Positions 3,811 through 32,900 of a DNA stretch of 64,000 nt are shown here, one piece after another. The notes beneath the pieces were generated by a model. It made no database searches. It saw nothing but the letters and a program-made list of their open reading frames with translations, and was not told where the DNA came from. The position numbers and the translations under genes were made by a program. Position 1 is the first letter of the stretch. Each line of letters opens with the position of its first letter. Source of the stretch: a virus; the IMG/VR virus record IMGVR_UViG_3300032893_000011, positions 32,001 through 96,000 of that record. One strand, written 5' to 3'.

Positions 3811-6800
3811 ATGTGGCCCGACCACGCCGAGGCGATCGAGGAGACCGTTAACGCCGAGGAGGCGCTGGAGGACGCCTACACACAGGCCCTGCACGCATGG
3901 GCGCCCCACGTGCAGGCCGCTGTCCTACCCGAACTGGACGGGCAGATCGTCACCGGCGACGACGACCCGCTGACCGCCGCAGCCACCGAAATCCCGCCCA
4001 ACCCCGACGCTGTCGGCTCCACCCAAAACCAGTGGGACGCCAGCGCGGCCGAGCACGTGCTGCCGGTGGTGGAGAAACTATGGGACGACGCCGCACTGGC
4101 CGCCGGGATCGGAACCGGGACACTCACCGCCGCCCTAAGCGCAGCCGACCTGCTGGCCGCAGCGAAATCGGCGCGCGACGACTTCACAAGCCGCTACAGG
4201 GACACCGCAGCGCAAGTGCCCGCCGCGGTGCGAGCCGAACTGCAGGCCATCATCAAACGCGCGCCCATAGGCACCACCACCTCGGCGCTGCGCTCGACCA
4301 TCCGCAAAGCCATCACACCCGGATCAGCGCTGCTGCGCGACCTGTCGCGACGCGCGAGCTACCACGCCGCCGGGATCCTCAACCACGCCCTCACGGCCGT
4401 CGCCAAACACACCGCAGGCGCCGACCGGCTCGAATGGCTGTGTGTGCACCCCGACACGGTCGTGTCGGCTGTCGGCGTCACCCACCTGGCGCGTCGCCGC
4501 TACGAAGGCACCCTTGTATCGATTCGCACAGCTTCGGGGTCGGCCGTGGCCCTCACACCGCAGCACCGTGTACTGACCGGCCGCGGGTGGGTGGCCGCCC
4601 AGCTCCTTCACGAGGGTGACGAGCTGTTCAAGGTCGGGGCCGTTAACGCCCCGGTCGCACCACACGTACAGGACGGGATAACCGTTATCGGTGATGTGGT
4701 CGACGCGGCGATGGACGGTCGCCCGCCCCAGGTGCGGTCCGTGGCGCGAGGTGTGGATTTCGACGGCCACACCGCTGGCGAGTATGTCGACGTTGTAGCG
4801 GCCGACCGCGACCTGCCGATCAACATCGAACCCGCTGGCGGCGAGATGCTCGGCGACCTGCTGCTCGCTGACGCCGACAGTCTGGCTCATGCGGCGATGC
4901 TTGGTGCGCGCCATCGCAACCACACCCTCGGCCGGTTTGGCGCGGCCCCGGTTCTTGTCGGCAACCATGCCGTAGAAGGCGGCCTTGACATCGGCGGGAA
5001 TCTTCGACACCCGGACCTTGCCAGCGGCGGACTTATCCCGCAACTCGACACCGGCCGCCGCGACAACGGCGGCGATCAACTGACCGGAACAACCGTATCG
5101 CTGGCCGAGCGCGAGCCGGGATCCCCCGGCGAGATACGCGGCGACGATCTCGTCAGCGTTGGCGCGGATGTCGCCGCGCCGCCGGGCCTCGACACCGAGT
5201 TTCTGCGCGGCCCGCGCCTGCGCAACGGCCTCGGGTCGGGTGAAACGCATCCGGGTGCCCTCGGCGCGGGTCCTCAAAACTCCCGCGTCGCGCAGCCTGC
5301 GGCGAACCGTCCCGGGGCTGCCGCCCAGGTCCACGGAGATTTCGACGGGACTCCATCCGGCGGTATACCTGGCGACGACCTCATCGACGTCGAGCCGGAC
5401 CCGCTTGGTGCGTGTGTTCGCGACCGGGTGGTCAGAGTGGGGCGAATTTTCCATAGCGGGTACGTGTACGACCTTTCGACGCGTGGCCATTGGTACACGG
5501 CGAATGGACTTATTGCACATAATTCTATACTCGACGAACGCACCCGCGACACCCATTGGGAGGCAGACGGGCAGGTCACATCGATCGGCGGGATGTTCGT
5601 CGTCGGCGGCTCTGAAATGGAATTTCCAGGGGACCATAGGGCCCCAATACGCGAATGGATCAACTGCGTGACCGGCGAGGCGCTAGTCTCCTGGCCTGGG
5701 CAGCAGGTATCTCACGCTACGAAGCGGCGCCACCGCGGCGCGTTCGTCCATCTGCTCACGGCTGACGGTCACGACCTCACCATCACCGCGAATCATCCCG
5801 TACTGACCGACGCCGGATACGTCACCGCTCACCTGTTGCGCCCAGGCGATCACGTCATCGCATCCGACCCCCTCAATGCCCCACAGGTAGATCACATGCC
5901 AGCCCGTGCTGATGAGGTCTATCGTGCGTTTCGCGATGCGGGGGTAGAGCAGCGGGTTGTAGCGAGCGGCGTGGACTTCCACCACGACGCGCTCGAAGGC
6001 GACGAAGTCAGCGTTGTACGGGCCGATGGTGACTTGTCCGAGGAGTTCAACCCCGGCCTTCTCGGCGGCGGCGACGATGCAGCGCTCGTTGGGCTGGGCA
6101 GCGGAAAGGGTGACGCCGCGCGTGCGGGCTCTGCTGTAAACGGCCGTCTCGACCTGGCCGTAGTAGCCCCTGGACGGCCTGGCGGCCGTCGACCGGCGAG
6201 CCTCGTTGGCGGCCCGGGCGATAGCGCGCCTACCCTCACGGTCGAGTTTGGCGAACCTGATCCGGTTGGCTTCGCTGCCAGAACGCACAGGAAGTCCCTG
6301 GTCGCGCAGGAGACGGACGATGGTGTCTCTGCTTACTCCGATGGTGCGCGCCATCTGCAGCACGCTTATGCCCTCGGCATGAAGCCGAGCAAGCTCACCG
6401 CTGTCGACGTTTACTTTGGCGACCATGATGTCTTCAACTTCTCGACCACCCAACAATTCTACTTCGGCAATGGCATTGCCGTGCACAACTGCCGATGCAG
6501 GCTGATCGCCCTGGGTGCAGGTGAGGAGCCTAAACTGCGGCGCGTGCCCGCCGAGGAGGCGGCCAAACGCGCCAAGCGCGGCGTGGTGCACGCCGAAGCG
6601 GAATCGGTGACCGCAGCGACGGAAGAGGTGGAGCAGATGGGCACCGTCACCCAGATCGATCCCCAGCAGCAGCCCGGCGAGACGTACCGCACGTTCACGG
6701 CGACGACCGCGTTCCTCGGCGTCCCCACCACCGACCGCCGCATGCTGCACAAGAAGATGGACCTGAAGATCCGGGCAGCCCCGCGACCGCTGATGTGGAT

Positions 6801-7962
6801 GTCCAAGACCGGTGATGGCATGGGGGGGCACCAGCACGCGTCCACGGTGGGCGTCATCGAGTCGGAGCAGGTCAAGGGCAACAAGATCGTCGAGTCGGGG
6901 TACCTGCTGAACACCCCGGACGCCGACGAGGCGGCGATGCAGCTCGCGCACAAGGTCACCCGGCCGTCGGTCGATTTGGGCGGCGCGGACTGGCAGATGA
7001 CCGACGAGGACGGCAACAAGATCGGCGAGGAGGAGTGGCGCAACCTGTCGCCGGGCACCAAGACGTACCGCACGTTCACCGCCGGTGAGTTGATGGGCAC
7101 AACCTTGGTGTCCACGCCCGCGTTCGGGGCGACGTCGCTGACGCTGCACCCGGAGCGCGAGACGCGGGACGTGGCGCTGGTCGCGGCGGCGGTGCAAAGC
7201 GCCCTGTTCTACGAGCCCCGCATATACCCGGCGTCGCACTTCTCCGACCCGCAGCTGCCCGGGCCGGCCCAACCGACGATGCTCGACGACGGCCGCATAG
7301 TGGGGCACATCGCCTGCTGGGGGGCGTGCCACCGCAGCGTGCAGAAACTCTGCCAGGAGGCGCCCCGATCCCCGTCCAATTACAGCCACTTCCACACCTC
7401 CCCGGCGGTGCGCCTCGACGACGGCACCCGGCTGCCGGTGGGACGGTTGACGATCGCCACCGGCCACGCCGACGGCCGCCTGAGCGGTGTGCCCGCGCAG
7501 GCCCACTACGACAACACCGGCTCCTGCTGGGCGCTGGTGCGGGCCGGGGAGGACGAGCACGGCATCTGGGTGTCCGGCATCGCCGCCCCGTGGGCCGACG
7601 CGGACCTGGTGGAGCAGGGCCTGTCCGCGCCGCTGTCGGGCGACTGGCGCGACTTCGGCGCCGGCCTGGACCTGATCGCCGCCCTGTCCGTGAACACCCC
7701 CGGGTTCGTCGCGGCCTCCGGGTTCGAGGACGAGTGGGGCCAGCAGCTGACCCTGGTGGCGTCCCTCGGACCGGACCCGACAGGGTCCCGCGGCCCGGCC
7801 GCGCTGACCCGCGACGACATCAAACGCGCGTTCGCCGAGGTCCTGTTCGAGGAGAATGCGCGAATCGAGCGGGAGTCGGCCCTGACGCGGGCCGCAGCGT
7901 TCACCCACCCGCCCACCCACAACGAGCGGGTCCGCGACATGCTGACCAGGGCCGGGTTCTAG
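3811..7962 (+). CDS. MuF-like (minor head) / capsid maturation protease fusion containing two inteins
   Basis: Spliced product restores the MuF motifs W-L-S-I-L-D-E-R-T-R-D-T-H..DG and EWIN-CRC; C-terminal protease-like region (T-D-R-R, PSVDL, TLVSTPAF, GHIACWG, LSGDWR). Confidence 0.85.
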   Translation: MWPDHAEAIEETVNAEEALEDAYTQALHAWAPHVQAAVLPELDGQIVTGDDDPLTAAATEIPPNPDAVGSTQNQWDASAAEHVLPVVEKLWDDAALAAGIGTGTLTAALSAADLLAAAKSARDDFTSRYRDTAAQVPAAVRAELQAIIKRAPIGTTTSALRSTIRKAITPGSALLRDLSRRASYHAAGILNHALTAVAKHTAGADRLEWLCVHPDTVVSAVGVTHLARRRYEGTLVSIRTASGSAVALTPQHRVLTGRGWVAAQLLHEGDELFKVGAVNAPVAPHVQDGITVIGDVVDAAMDGRPPQVRSVARGVDFDGHTAGEYVDVVAADRDLPINIEPAGGEMLGDLLLADADSLAHAAMLGARHRNHTLGRFGAAPVLVGNHAVEGGLDIGGNLRHPDLASGGLIPQLDTGRRDNGGDQLTGTTVSLAEREPGSPGEIRGDDLVSVGADVAAPPGLDTEFLRGPRLRNGLGSGETHPGALGAGPQNSRVAQPAANRPGAAAQVHGDFDGTPSGGIPGDDLIDVEPDPLGACVRDRVVRVGRIFHSGYVYDLSTRGHWYTANGLIAHNSILDERTRDTHWEADGQVTSIGGMFVVGGSEMEFPGDHRAPIREWINCVTGEALVSWPGQQVSHATKRRHRGAFVHLLTADGHDLTITANHPVLTDAGYVTAHLLRPGDHVIASDPLNAPQVDHMPARADEVYRAFRDAGVEQRVVASGVDFHHDALEGDEVSVVRADGDLSEEFNPGLLGGGDDAALVGLGSGKGDAARAGSAVNGRLDLAVVAPGRPGGRRPASLVGGPGDSAPTLTVEFGEPDPVGFAARTHRKSLVAQETDDGVSAYSDGARHLQHAYALGMKPSKLTAVDVYFGDHDVFNFSTTQQFYFGNGIAVHNCRCRLIALGAGEEPKLRRVPAEEAAKRAKRGVVHAEAESVTAATEEVEQMGTVTQIDPQQQPGETYRTFTATTAFLGVPTTDRRMLHKKMDLKIRAAPRPLMWMSKTGDGMGGHQHASTVGVIESEQVKGNKIVESGYLLNTPDADEAAMQLAHKVTRPSVDLGGADWQMTDEDGNKIGEEEWRNLSPGTKTYRTFTAGELMGTTLVSTPAFGATSLTLHPERETRDVALVAAAVQSALFYEPRIYPASHFSDPQLPGPAQPTMLDDGRIVGHIACWGACHRSVQKLCQEAPRSPSNYSHFHTSPAVRLDDGTRLPVGRLTIATGHADGRLSGVPAQAHYDNTGSCWALVRAGEDEHGIWVSGIAAPWADADLVEQGLSAPLSGDWRDFGAGLDLIAALSVNTPGFVAASGFEDEWGQQLTLVASLGPDPTGSRGPAALTRDDIKRAFAEVLFEENARIERESALTRAAAFTHPPTHNERVRDMLTRAGF
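4324..5454 (-). CDS. Antisense HTH + DUF559/Vsr-like endonuclease overlapping intein A (start could instead be 5490 or 5520)
   Basis: Two HTH repeats (DEVVARYTAGWSPVEISVDLGGSPGTVRRRLRDAGV; DEIVAAYLAGGSRLALGQRYGCS) then SEQQVAEHL..RQVAVGRYNVDI..VAVEIH..R..I..NGYPVLYVW. Confidence 0.85.
   Translation of the reverse strand: MENSPHSDHPVANTRTKRVRLDVDEVVARYTAGWSPVEISVDLGGSPGTVRRRLRDAGVLRTRAEGTRMRFTRPEAVAQARAAQKLGVEARRRGDIRANADEIVAAYLAGGSRLALGQRYGCSGQLIAAVVAAAGVELRDKSAAGKVRVSKIPADVKAAFYGMVADKNRGRAKPAEGVVAMARTKHRRMSQTVGVSEQQVAEHLAASGFDVDRQVAVGRYNVDILASGVAVEIHTSRHGPHLGRATVHRRVDHITDNGYPVLYVWCDRGVNGPDLEQLVTLVKELGGHPPAAGQYTVLRCEGHGRPRSCANRYKGAFVAATRQVGDADSRHDRVGVHTQPFEPVGACGVFGDGREGVVEDPGGVVARASRQVAQQR
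4441..5523 (+). mobile_element. Intein A (361 aa) in the MuF domain
   Basis: CVHPDTVV start; block B LTPQHRVLTGRGWVAAQLLHEGD; block F/G GYVYDLSTRGHWYTANGLIAHN; +1 Ser. Confidence 0.92.
5665..6489 (+). mobile_element. Intein B (275 aa) in the MuF N-C-R-C motif
   Basis: CVTGEALV start; block B ITANHPVLTDAGYVTAHLLRPGD; block F/G DVFNFSTTQQFYFGNGIAVHN; +1 Cys. Confidence 0.92.
5683..6426 (-). CDS. Antisense HTH + DUF559/Vsr-like endonuclease (247 aa) wholly inside intein B
   Basis: MVAKVNVDSGELARLHAEGISVLQMARTIGVSRDTIVRLLRDQG (HTH) then NERCI..GQVTIGPYNADF..VVVEVH..KRTIDLISTGWHVIYLW; start and stop both fall within the intein. Confidence 0.85.
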   Translation of the reverse strand: MVAKVNVDSGELARLHAEGISVLQMARTIGVSRDTIVRLLRDQGLPVRSGSEANRIRFAKLDREGRRAIARAANEARRSTAARPSRGYYGQVETAVYSRARTRGVTLSAAQPNERCIVAAAEKAGVELLGQVTIGPYNADFVAFERVVVEVHAARYNPLLYPRIAKRTIDLISTGWHVIYLWGIEGVGCDDVIAWAQQVSGDVSGVGQYGMIRGDGEVVTVSREQMDERAAVAPLRSVRYLLPRPGD

Positions 7963-29900: not shown

Positions 29901-32900
29901 CTGCCCGCCAGCCGGCTCCCGCCGGGGGCCATCCCCGGCCGCATAGGGCCGTGGGGCACGCCCATCCCGCCGCAGAACCCGCCCGGCTACCAGGTGGCCG
30001 CCGCCGTGATCCAAGCGCTGGGCGGCAACGTCGAAGCCGCTATCGGCGAATCCCCGATCCAGTACGCGCAGGAGCAGTGGGAGCAGGACGTCGACCGGTG
30101 GGTGGACAAGGCGGATCAGCAGATCAGCCAGTGGGAGCAGATGCTGCAGGAGATGCAGCAGTGGAACGCCTACCAGCAGGAGTATCTGGACTGGCTGCAG
30201 GGGCAGTCGCAGCAGAAGCCGATACCGGGGATGCCGTGGACCGCCCCCAACATTCCGCCGCCCGCGACGGGGCCGCGGCTGCCGCAGTTCGGACCGCCAC
30301 CGGGCTGGCCACCCGGATCAGCCCCGCCGCAGCAGCCGGGCTGGCCATCCGCGACACCCGGCTGGCCCTCGGCGCAAGGTTACGCGCAGATGGCGCCACC
30401 GGTCACCCTCCAGCCGGCTGCCGGCGCCCACGCCGTCATACCGCCCAACCCCACCAAGGACCAGGTGATCGCCGCGATCATCGCCGAAGGCCGGGCGCGC
30501 GGACTCAGCGACCAGGAGATCGCCGGTGTGCTGTCGGTGGCGCAGCAGGAAAGCGGCTTCAACCTTGAGGGGTTCATGGGGTTCGCGACGAAAACCACCG
30601 ACACCGGCTACACCGGCGGGGCCGCCTACGCCAACCAGTGGAACCCGGCCCTGCAGAAGTTCTACGACAACTACATGGCCGGTGGGTACGGGGCCGCCGG
30701 TGGCCCCCAAGCCAAGGCCGCGGCGCTGCAGGCCCTCCAAAGCGGCAACCCGCAGCCGTTCCTGAACTGGCTTCAGTCCGGTGTGCAGGGCATACCGAAC
30801 ACGGTGGGACTCAACGCCTCGTTCGGCCCCAATATCGCCGCCAACTATCCGCTGTGGCTGTCTAGGCTGTCCACGACATCCACCATCGGTGTCCCCCACC
30901 TGGGCACCGGACTGCCGCCCGGACCGACAGCACCCGGGCTGCCCGGAGCCAACATCGCCACCGCAGGTAGCCCCATCCCGGTGTGGGTCGTCGGCAGCGG
31001 CCCGATGACCGGCGCCGGGTTCGGCCCGATGCCTGGAGCCGGGTTCGGCCCGCCAGGAGGCCTCGGCGGCCTCCCAGCGCCGCCGCAAGGCTCCAGCTTC
31101 GCCGGTGCCGCAGCCAGCAGTGCCGGTGTCCAAGCCGCGATCCAGCTGGCACAGCAGGCGGCGGGCGGTCAATACCAGTGGGGCGGCGTGGGACCGCTCT
31201 ACGACTGCAGCGGCCTCATCTCCACGCTGTACGCGGCGATCACCGGCAAGCCCTTCGGCGGCGGGCAACGCTACTTCACCACCGACTCCAACTTCGCCTC
31301 GCTGGGGTTCGTGCCCGGCTACAACCCCGCGTCGGCGCTGAACATCTCCACCACCGGGGAGCACATCACCGGGCAACTCGCCGGGGTGCCGGTCGAGGCG
31401 CACGCGCCGGGCATTCCCACAAGTGTTGGCCCCGGCGCGACCTTCCCGCTGCCCGGCGGCACACCCTACTACCTGCCCATCGACGTCAACGGCCAACCGC
31501 TGGGACCCCCAACCGCGGCGCTGACATCCTGGAACGCCCCGGCCCCGCCGAGCACCGCGAACGCCTCACCGGCCTACTATCCAGGCCTGGGGCAGCCCGG
31601 CGGGCTGGGCTCGGTGGGCTCACCGGTGCCCGTGTACGTCACCAACTGGCCGTCCAGCGGGCCCGCAGCCCGCGGCGCCCCCCTGCCCGGCAGCACCGCA
31701 GCCCAGCAGATCGGCGAAGGGGTCGGGAATGTCGCCGCCAACGTCACCGGCAACATCCTCGACGCGATCGGTGGCCTGGGCAACCAGCCGTGGCAGCCAT
31801 GGAAGCAGCAGCCCGCCGCGTCGGTTTGGCAGCTCGCCAACCAGGGCAACCCGCTGGCCATCGCCGCAGCCGCGGGTTTCACCGTCCCGTCGTTCGCCAT
31901 GTCCGGCTCGGGTATCGGCCCCAACCAGATCGCCGCCCCGCCGAGCCCCGCGTTCAACGCGCAGGGGCAACTCTTCAGCGACACCGCCGCGCTGCTCGAA
32001 CGCTCCTTCTCCTCGCTGTCCGCCGAACTCGACGCGATGCGCAGCCAGCTCGTCGACGTGCTCAACGAGATCAAGCAGATGCTCACCCAGGAGGCCCTGG
32101 AGCCGATCATGGAGGCCGCCGTCAAGGCGGCGATCTCCTCCATCCCCGGGAGCGTGCTGGACACGATCGGCCAGAACATGGGCACAGCCGCCGCCCCGCC
32201 GATCGCCGACGCCGTCGACAGCGCCATCAGCACCGCCTCCCAAAGCGCCACCCCCAACACGAGCCTGGGAGGGGCGGTCACCACGTGGACCAACAGCGCC
32301 GAGAACGTGGTGCTGGGCCCGCAGTCCTACGACGAAGGCGGCCCATGGCCCACCGGCACGCTGGGCATCAACACCTCGGGGGCCACCGAATACGTGCTGA
32401 CCGCCGCCGAGTACGCCAACCTGGGCCGGTTCCAGGGCATGGACCCGGCGACGCTGCAGGGTGCCGGGTGGACATCGGCCGCCCCCGGGACGATCGGCAA
32501 CGCCAACGTCGGCGCGCAATGGTTCGGGGTGGAAAACATCCCGATCCTCAACGCGCTGGTCAACATCCTGGTGGAGATCCTGCTGTCCGTGCTGGGTGTG
32601 CAAATCCAGGTCAGAGACACCATGATCAATTTGACCCAGCAATTCCGCCAGTTCCGCGGCGACTCGTTCAAGGCGTTCGACGCGCAGGGAAGGTTGTTGA
32701 ACGACACGAGCGCGCTGATGGACCGCAGCATCACCTCCGCGCAGGAGGCCGCCGACCAGCGCATCCAAATCCTGGAGATCGTCCTGGCGGCGCTGATCAA
32801 GTACATCGTCGACAACATCATCATCCCCATCGCCGACGCGGTCGGCCAGGCGCTGGTCAACGCGGCCGCCTCCGCCGCCGGAGCGGCGACCAGCGCCGGC

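Follow-up and report, generated by a model that had tools for sequence, protein, structure and literature searches.

Bacteria and phages offer few long antisense overlaps for which selection on both products can be demonstrated, and such cases are often disputed. In the fractured genes of Dassa et al. 2009 (PMC2677866), a free-standing gene for a Vsr-like endonuclease lies between the two halves of a split intein, on the same strand, and its 3' end overlaps the downstream intein part by 6-69 bp, a coupling which was argued to limit the acceptable mutations. Gosselin, Arsenault & Gogarten (bioRxiv 10.1101/2025.01.02.630785) reported VSR-like endonucleases encoded anti-sense within the full inteins of minor capsid proteins from actinophages, with the antisense open reading frames (ORFs) typically lying outside the splicing domain. 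A 2026 preprint (bioRxiv 10.64898/2026.09.14.751524) described, for the dnaX intein, a LAGLIDADG gene lying out of frame over the disordered part, where selection switches between frames; an antisense or out-of-frame LAGLIDADG reading of this intein is also credited, in a paper citing it, to Gorbalenya 1998. Here we analysed a window of 64,000 nucleotides (nt) from a virus (IMG/VR record IMGVR_UViG_3300032893_000011, positions 32,001 to 96,000), in which a minor capsid gene of the MuF type contains two inteins, A and B, each with a nuclease gene on the opposite strand. Each intein is very probably a two-strand module, in which the antisense gene of a homing-type nuclease runs from splicing block F to block A and writes a beta-hairpin of the nuclease on the codons of block B.

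A first-pass annotation of this DNA had claimed that the nuclease C-terminus overprints block B of the intein, and had listed pairs of motifs read from the two strands of inteins A and B. All these pairs mapped exactly, codon on codon and in phase 0, that is, codon-opposite, with sense position 3 pairing with antisense position 1. The minus-strand ORFs 5637..4324 and 7920..5683 cross inteins A and B, respectively (features are collected in Table 1). In intein B, residue n pairs with residue 255-n of nuclease B, so that the predicted folded N-lobe of the intein lies opposite nuclease residues 135-247, catalytic strands included. The overprinting itself was borne out: the same codons serve both proteins and selection is seen on both, as fixation of sense-synonymous sites and as substitutions that change the sense residue and are silent in the antisense frame. 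The annotation was also right that the overlap runs through the N-terminal splicing domain, but it understated its extent, since the ORF spans block F to block A. That the overlap goes beyond chance is shown by homology, by fold predictions, by an identical layout in 140 distinct loci and by the codon constraint at block B.

These 140 loci, with a guanine-cytosine (GC) content of 0.37-0.72, comprise 48 loci from the first searches and 92 from a sample blind to block B. Among the 48, 27 had been retrieved through the mirror motif of block B, one of the two search patterns used, and 21 independently of it; the blind sample was drawn from IMG/VR by the nuclease catalytic motif alone and yielded 92 new distinct closed ORFs. 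The nuclease lay antisense and codon-opposite within a longer ORF in 59/59 loci of the first searches, across the same range of GC content. In the blind sample, a Hint N-lobe was found on the opposite strand in 92/92 loci, and the nuclease ORF extended 10-49 codons beyond the block-B His in 92/92. As the proposed overprinting would have it, homologous antisense ORFs did not stop before block B: no intact nuclease ORF terminated ahead of it in any of the 140 loci examined. On the sense strand, blocks A, B, F and G were all present in 48/48 loci, and the block-B His was invariant (48/48) at 40-43 residues from intein residue 1, which was Cys in 44/48 and Ala in 4/48. Two insertion sites in MuF were used across the 48 loci, both of which are filled in the window, and the host genes carried Phage_Mu_F or Phage_min_cap2 domains. 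Three loci with Ala in place of Cys at residue 1 (L049, L051 and L054) had the host motif hpN followed by A and may use a different splicing class; L051 and L054 were also short inteins (222-228 amino acids (aa)), whose nuclease apparently lacks the N-terminal helix-turn-helix (HTH) module.

The evidence for selection on the antisense reading comes from codon choice. From block A to about seven codons before the block-B His, sense third positions in the 48 loci were free (identity 0.26-0.31, as low as in the extein), and they became fixed from His-6 to His+4. The Val/Ile codon at His+2 was GTA or ATA in 39/48 loci, rare codons at high GC which give Tyr on the antisense strand; Asn at His-1 was written AAT in 31/48; and at His-5, where the sense residue varied between Thr, Ser and Ala, position 3 was C in 42/48, keeping the antisense Gly. 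We repeated the block-B tests on the 21 loci independent of the mirror motif and then on the blind sample, with each locus's own extein codon usage as the expectation in the blind sample and column-based counts as controls. The suppression of synonymous variation over block B, which the first-pass annotation had put forward as a measure of double coding, was present in the blind sample at four positions. The His+2 Val/Ile codon ended in A in 65/76 loci (10.2 expected, P=9e-53), His-1 Asn was AAT in 54/71 (19.8 expected, P=1e-20), His-3 fitted an antisense Gly or Cys in 68/80 (P=9e-11), and His-5 ended in C in 63/70 while the sense residue varied between Thr, Ser and Ala (31.2 expected, P=3e-17). 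By these tests, the demonstrably selected antisense residues are Y-x-V-I-x-G-x-G. The constraint seen at His+4 and His-2 in the first sample was an ascertainment effect and was gone in the blind one.

The antisense residues were kept through varied codons (Arg by CGG, AGG or CGC; Gly by GGT, GGA or GGC; Tyr by TAC or TAT), which points to a constraint at the level of the protein and not of DNA or RNA. An exhaustive HMMER search of 1.84 billion representatives returned 1796 nuclease clusters at E<=1e-30, and in 151 cluster representatives the hairpin residues were conserved nearly like the catalytic ones (Y in 135/151, the two G in 138/151 and 142/151). None of the 151 ended before the hairpin; all continued 7-82 residues past the hairpin residues, mostly 22-40. 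In the AlphaFold2 model, Y-x-V-I-x-G-x-G forms a beta-hairpin, predicted with confidence, that lies past the end of the canonical Vsr-like core. These patterns argue that block B is under purifying selection in both frames, the sense residues being conserved and the sense-silent sites being fixed for the antisense protein.

Consistently with a real antisense protein, the nuclease sequences match known families. Single-sequence Pfam matches were weak (HTH, DUF559 and MTES_1575, the last two below the curated cut-off). A profile of 44 nuclease homologues matched the DUF559 structure 3hrl (E=3.8e-7, query residues 100-196) and the catalytic domain of I-Bth0305I, 3r3p (E=1.3e-4). The AlphaFold2 model of nuclease B, with a mean pLDDT (predicted local distance difference test) of 90.5, consists of N-terminal helices, a beta-rich core with N138, D140 and E150, and a helix at 189-200, followed at the C-terminus by a strand (209-213), a turn, a short strand (218-219) and a helix (223-232); by the profile match, the canonical Vsr-like core extends to around residue 196, which leaves about 10 residues between it and the hairpin. 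Foldseek placed 3r3p and 3hrl at the top (probability 1.00, template modelling score to target 0.62-0.66) and also returned 1vsr, with E-values of 0.01-0.5 which we attribute to searching with the full-length model. N138, D140 and E150 were invariant in the 44 sequences and nearly so in the 151 representatives; the residue two past the Glu was His in just 25/151, and the literal E-D-x-H-D signature is not kept. By the profile matches, both nucleases are assigned to the Vsr-like PD-(D/E)xK family, as homing-type enzymes for which site-specific cleavage is predicted. Their N-terminal HTH module is repeated one to five times across family members, with several copies in nuclease A and one in nuclease B.

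Opposite the catalytic motifs, the inteins share the sense motifs DF..D and V.VV.AD, which the first-pass annotation read as an imprint of the nuclease. The antisense-dominated variation of this part mostly supports that reading, but AlphaFold2 predicts a strand in the sense protein there too. As a search signature for the family, which they had been proposed to provide, they proved weak, matching 49/92 loci of the blind sample with a loose regular expression.

The reach of the double constraint differed between clades. In the B-type clade (9 sequences), variation was sense-dominated in the exteins and in blocks F-G and antisense-dominated in the insert, and the two frames diverged equally over about 70 codons, from block A to the GD motif. 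Sites of this zone at which the sense residue changed and the antisense residue was kept included Gly, Arg or Trp opposite a fixed Pro, and Ala, Thr or Pro opposite a nearly fixed Arg (8/9 sequences). The tail of nuclease B that lies between blocks A and B includes a helix modelled with confidence by AlphaFold2. In the A-type clade (intein A of the window and four relatives), the tail between blocks A and B was sense-dominated, and only block B and the region downstream of it were shared between frames, which fits with the loss of the block-A stop in intein A without visible consequence.

A number of results weigh against the selected antisense reading of block B. Because the signal at His+4 and His-2 vanished in the blind sample, only part of the decapeptide is demonstrably selected. 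The antisense tail between blocks A and B showed constraint in the B-type clade only; neither the set as a whole nor the A-type clade had any there. Stop-codon avoidance, combined over all loci by Fisher's method, was not significant (64.5 on 96 degrees of freedom (df)), and in the low-GC subset it was marginal (47.8 on 30 df, P about 0.02); a product of per-locus probabilities, which gave 7e-15, was discarded as invalid, since each region is defined by its own first stop. The 151 representatives were compared at the level of protein sequence only. Finally, the expression of the nuclease, its cutting of intein-less MuF alleles for homing and the role of the hairpin are matters that we infer.

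Several of these points would be expected if the nuclease were real and its functional end lay before block B, so that the antisense motif were a passively read mirror of a conserved splicing block. The end of the canonical Vsr-like domain near residue 196, the unconstrained tail, the marginal stop avoidance at low GC and the ORF of intein A, which goes 39 codons into the extein, all accord with such read-through, as does the fact that codon-opposite stops require the rare sense codons TTA, CTA and TCA. Read-through nevertheless fails to explain why, in the blind sample, third positions are fixed against codon usage (GTA/ATA and AAT, P 1e-20 to 1e-52), why the antisense Gly is retained where the His-5 sense residue varies, why conservation of the hairpin in the 151 representatives comes close to that of the catalytic residues, or why AlphaFold2 predicts a confident hairpin, and we hold it to be improbable. 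Less probable still is that the third positions of block B are constrained as nucleic acid, serving as a recognition or immunity site, as RNA structure or as a translational pause for intein folding. Homing elements do often hold sequence that needs to avoid or mimic the target site, but the variation at block B obeys the antisense genetic code, with synonymous codons for Arg, Gly and Tyr, and the pattern is the same across GC contents of 0.37-0.72 and for two insertion sites whose flanks differ.

Length of the antisense frames is no evidence of overlap, because the minus frame at intein B, in a region of 67% GC, is open for 745 codons, the whole C-extein included. The about 480 open antisense codons over the C-extein (6490-7920, minus strand) had no homologues and look like a GC-content artefact, with the gene confined to 6426..5683. 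GC by codon position was tried as a strand test and rejected: within the inteins, GC at third positions (GC3) falls and at first positions rises, a contrast too slight to tell which strand is coding. That the nuclease ORFs are themselves chance open frames in GC-rich DNA, as the 745-codon frame and the indecisive GC3 plot might suggest, is an explanation that we count as already refuted by homologues at GC 0.37-0.52 in Aaphi23, Salmonella Jerseyvirus and E. coli phages, the profile matches to the DUF559 and I-Bth0305I structures, the high-confidence AlphaFold2 model, the 1796 clusters and the antisense-dominated substitution in the insert.

The selected antisense gene, which is the reading we retain, appears to have its expression signals written into the splicing blocks at both ends. 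Its stop codon lay -1 to +22 codons from intein residue 1 in 47/48 loci, often opposite Leu2; that of nuclease B is 6 codons inside the intein. Intein A of the window was the sole exception (1/48), with the stop at -39 (4324-4326), in the N-extein, and the extra codons covering nt 4324-4440. In L050, a relative of intein A, a stop close to block A is still found. For most loci, the antisense start was an ATG complementary to a CAT codon for His within or close to block F, and a few loci used GTG or TTG. In 16/47 loci, a GGAGG-like site lay at -14 to -6, where the opposite strand reads the N-L-Q codons of block F (region 6403-6445 in the window), and the block F Leu was CTC in 21/48, the AT-rich Aaphi23 among them. 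For nuclease A, the ATG at 5490 is the probable start, with 5520 and 5454 as alternatives. The hexamer TAGAAT, a candidate -10 box, occurs three times in the 64 kb window, two of the copies being upstream of the nuclease ATGs, a placement which would favour 5490 as the start of nuclease A; its position is apparently not conserved in B-type relatives, as judged by eye.

In the model that we propose, the plus strand would encode a class-1 Hint splicing domain whose central part is disordered filler, and the minus strand, codon-opposite, a nuclease made up of at least one DNA-binding HTH module, a core of the Vsr-like PD-(D/E)xK type and, at the C-terminus, a beta-hairpin specific to the family. 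The nuclease ORF would start at an ATG in or near block F, often behind the GGAGG-like site opposite N-L-Q, cross the filler and then the folded intein N-lobe including block B, and stop immediately within block A, opposite a codon for Leu or Ser, making the gene usually self-contained in the mobile unit. As the intein contains both start and stop, it carries the nuclease gene along. The MuF precursor would splice out both inteins, and the nuclease would be made from the other strand via signals within the 3' coding region of the intein; it presumably cuts intein-less MuF alleles during co-infection, after which repair would copy the element. The hairpin most likely arose by overprinting, as read-through into the antisense of block B that was later made functional, given that the canonical Vsr-like domain ends about 10 residues before it. 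A stronger version, which we judge evenly balanced between true and false, is that the Hint domain and the nuclease are an ancient obligate overlapping pair, co-evolved across bacterial phyla, in a family found only in inteins, with a single origin and a fixed frame; block F would then provide the ribosome-binding site and start, block B a de novo hairpin and block A the stop.

The family was widespread among phages. By tblastn, the nuclease was found in 97 phage records (phages of Gordonia, Mycobacterium, Salmonella, Pseudomonas, Aggregatibacter, Escherichia, Pantoea and Cronobacter), lying in all the matches listed beneath a gene for MuF or head morphogenesis, and antisense in the four loci inspected; prophages of Rhizobium, Anaerolineae and Dormibacterota also had family members. 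When the nuclease core alone was the tblastn query, none of the homologues in 50,697 phage records was free-standing. In one further record (L071 / L011, IMGVR_UViG_3300025130_000006), two nuclease catalytic-motif matches lie about 930 nt apart on the same strand, and other phages may thus also have two such inteins in one MuF gene.

The first-pass annotation had concluded that the interlock makes the endonuclease gene hard to lose. This applies to clean deletion of the ORF, which the overlap blocks, but not to inactivation. In L050 (IMGVR_UViG_3300012090_000104, ~1354-1845), a close relative of intein A with an intact, shorter intein of 213 aa, the nuclease frame is broken by a premature stop at the conserved Trp of the L-Y-V-W strand while the sense imprint motifs are still visible, and the nuclease is, to judge from this frame, in decay.

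The sense gene of the window encodes a protein whose C-terminal part matches mycobacteriophage genes for a 'capsid maturation protease and MuF-like fusion protein', and which has a Pfam Intein_splicing match (E=1.6e-14). Intein A is inserted at the W-L/S-I-L-D site of MuF and intein B at the N/CRC site (the slash marks the insertion point); blocks F and G are present, and the inteins end in HN/S and HN/C, respectively. AlphaFold2 gave a Hint fold for intein B, confident at residues 1-70, 81-120 and 221-275 and below 50 over most of 123-217. A VIA-align comparison matched the model to the Mtu RecA mini-intein (Z 12.8, root-mean-square deviation 1.7 A over 108 residues), and dozens of further inteins scored Z>8. 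With their catalytic residues intact in an essential head gene, both inteins presumably splice. The 47-codon extein spacer between them (5524-5664) had a GC3 of ~0.63-0.77 vs 0.9-1.0 in the C-extein, which is consistent with a co-conversion tract imported with an intein.

Table 1. Features of the two-intein MuF locus, in window coordinates.
Feature	Position	Strand	Details
Dual-coded decapeptide, intein A	4549..4578	both	Plus: block B, T-x-x-H motif (4552-4578); minus: nuclease hairpin motif (4578..4549)
Dual-coded decapeptide, intein B	5779..5808	both	Plus: block B, T-x-x-H motif (5782-5808); minus: hairpin motif, nuclease residues 207-216
Nuclease A catalytic motifs, YN.D and VAVE-type	4753..4815	-	Opposite sense DF..D / V.VV.AD..L
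Nuclease B catalytic motifs, with invariant N138, D140, E150	5971..6036	-	Opposite sense DF..D / V.VV.AD..L
Intein B zone (~residues 1-70) of equal sense and antisense amino-acid divergence in the B-type clade	5665..5874	both	10-codon windows
Nuclease gene A (predicted)	4324..5490	-	Repeated HTH modules and Vsr-like core
Nuclease gene B (predicted), 247 aa	5683..6426	-	HTH, Vsr-like core, C-terminal hairpin, tail
TAGAAT, candidate -10 box	5522..5527	-	32 nt upstream of ATG 5490; straddles the Asn/Ser splice junction
TAGAAT, candidate -10 box	6456..6461	-	30 nt upstream of ATG 6426; from hexamer count
MuF-like minor capsid protein and capsid maturation protease fusion, two inteins inside	3811..7962	+	1383 aa
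Intein A, Cys211 to Asn571	4441..5523	+	361 aa; Cys1, block B T..H, block F, terminal HN, +1 Ser
Intein B, Cys619 to Asn893	5665..6489	+	275 aa; Cys1 to HN, +1 Cys

These data describe a large and deeply diverged family (at least 140 loci and at least 1796 clusters), in which the catalytic block of one protein shares its codons with a conserved structural element of the other. It provides a natural system for studying how overprinting constrains both proteins, as block B, otherwise variable among inteins, is nearly frozen here. The view that out-of-frame intein nucleases occupy only the dispensable insert is thereby corrected, and the arrangement accounts for annotation pipelines missing the antisense nuclease genes. 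It also suggests that the splicing motifs of a mobile element can double as its start, stop and ribosome-binding signals, and the nuclease gene would then move with the intein to new hosts.

Among the systems described so far, the inteins of Gosselin et al. 2025 are like those studied here in having a complete intein, a sense insert without recognisable structure, an antisense ORF whose core matches Vsr and I-Bth0305I, and a minor capsid (MuF) host gene, and some phages are common to both studies (Angelicage, Affeca, Keitabear and Sedona). As an architecture, the antisense Vsr-like gene had already been reported. In contrast with that description, the ORF here runs from block F to block A in 140/140 loci, with block B dual-coded, and the family extends far beyond actinophages, to Salmonella, E. 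coli, Aggregatibacter, Pseudomonas, Pantoea and Cronobacter phages and to prophages. In our literature search, neither dual coding over the splicing blocks nor a distribution outside actinophages was found to have been reported, and the overlap with the splicing blocks appears to be new. With the fractured genes and with I-Bth0305I (Taylor et al. 2011, PMC3239194), the inteins of the window share the nuclease superfamily and the separate, intein-associated nuclease gene; unlike in the fractured genes, each intein is in one piece and has its nuclease on the other strand, with the whole nuclease gene overlapped (~740 nt in intein B). The dnaX intein is similar in having a homing endonuclease read in another frame over the intein insert, and differs in its nuclease family and in that the overlap is described as lying over the disordered region between the halves of the splicing domain, not over the splicing blocks. 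Finally, canonical bifunctional inteins such as PI-SceI and PI-PfuI have in common with inteins A and B the Hint fold, the splicing blocks and a presumed homing life cycle, but whereas they join splicing and an in-frame LAGLIDADG or HNH endonuclease in one polypeptide, the two functions are here divided between two polypeptides and two strands, with predicted expression signals embedded in the intein.

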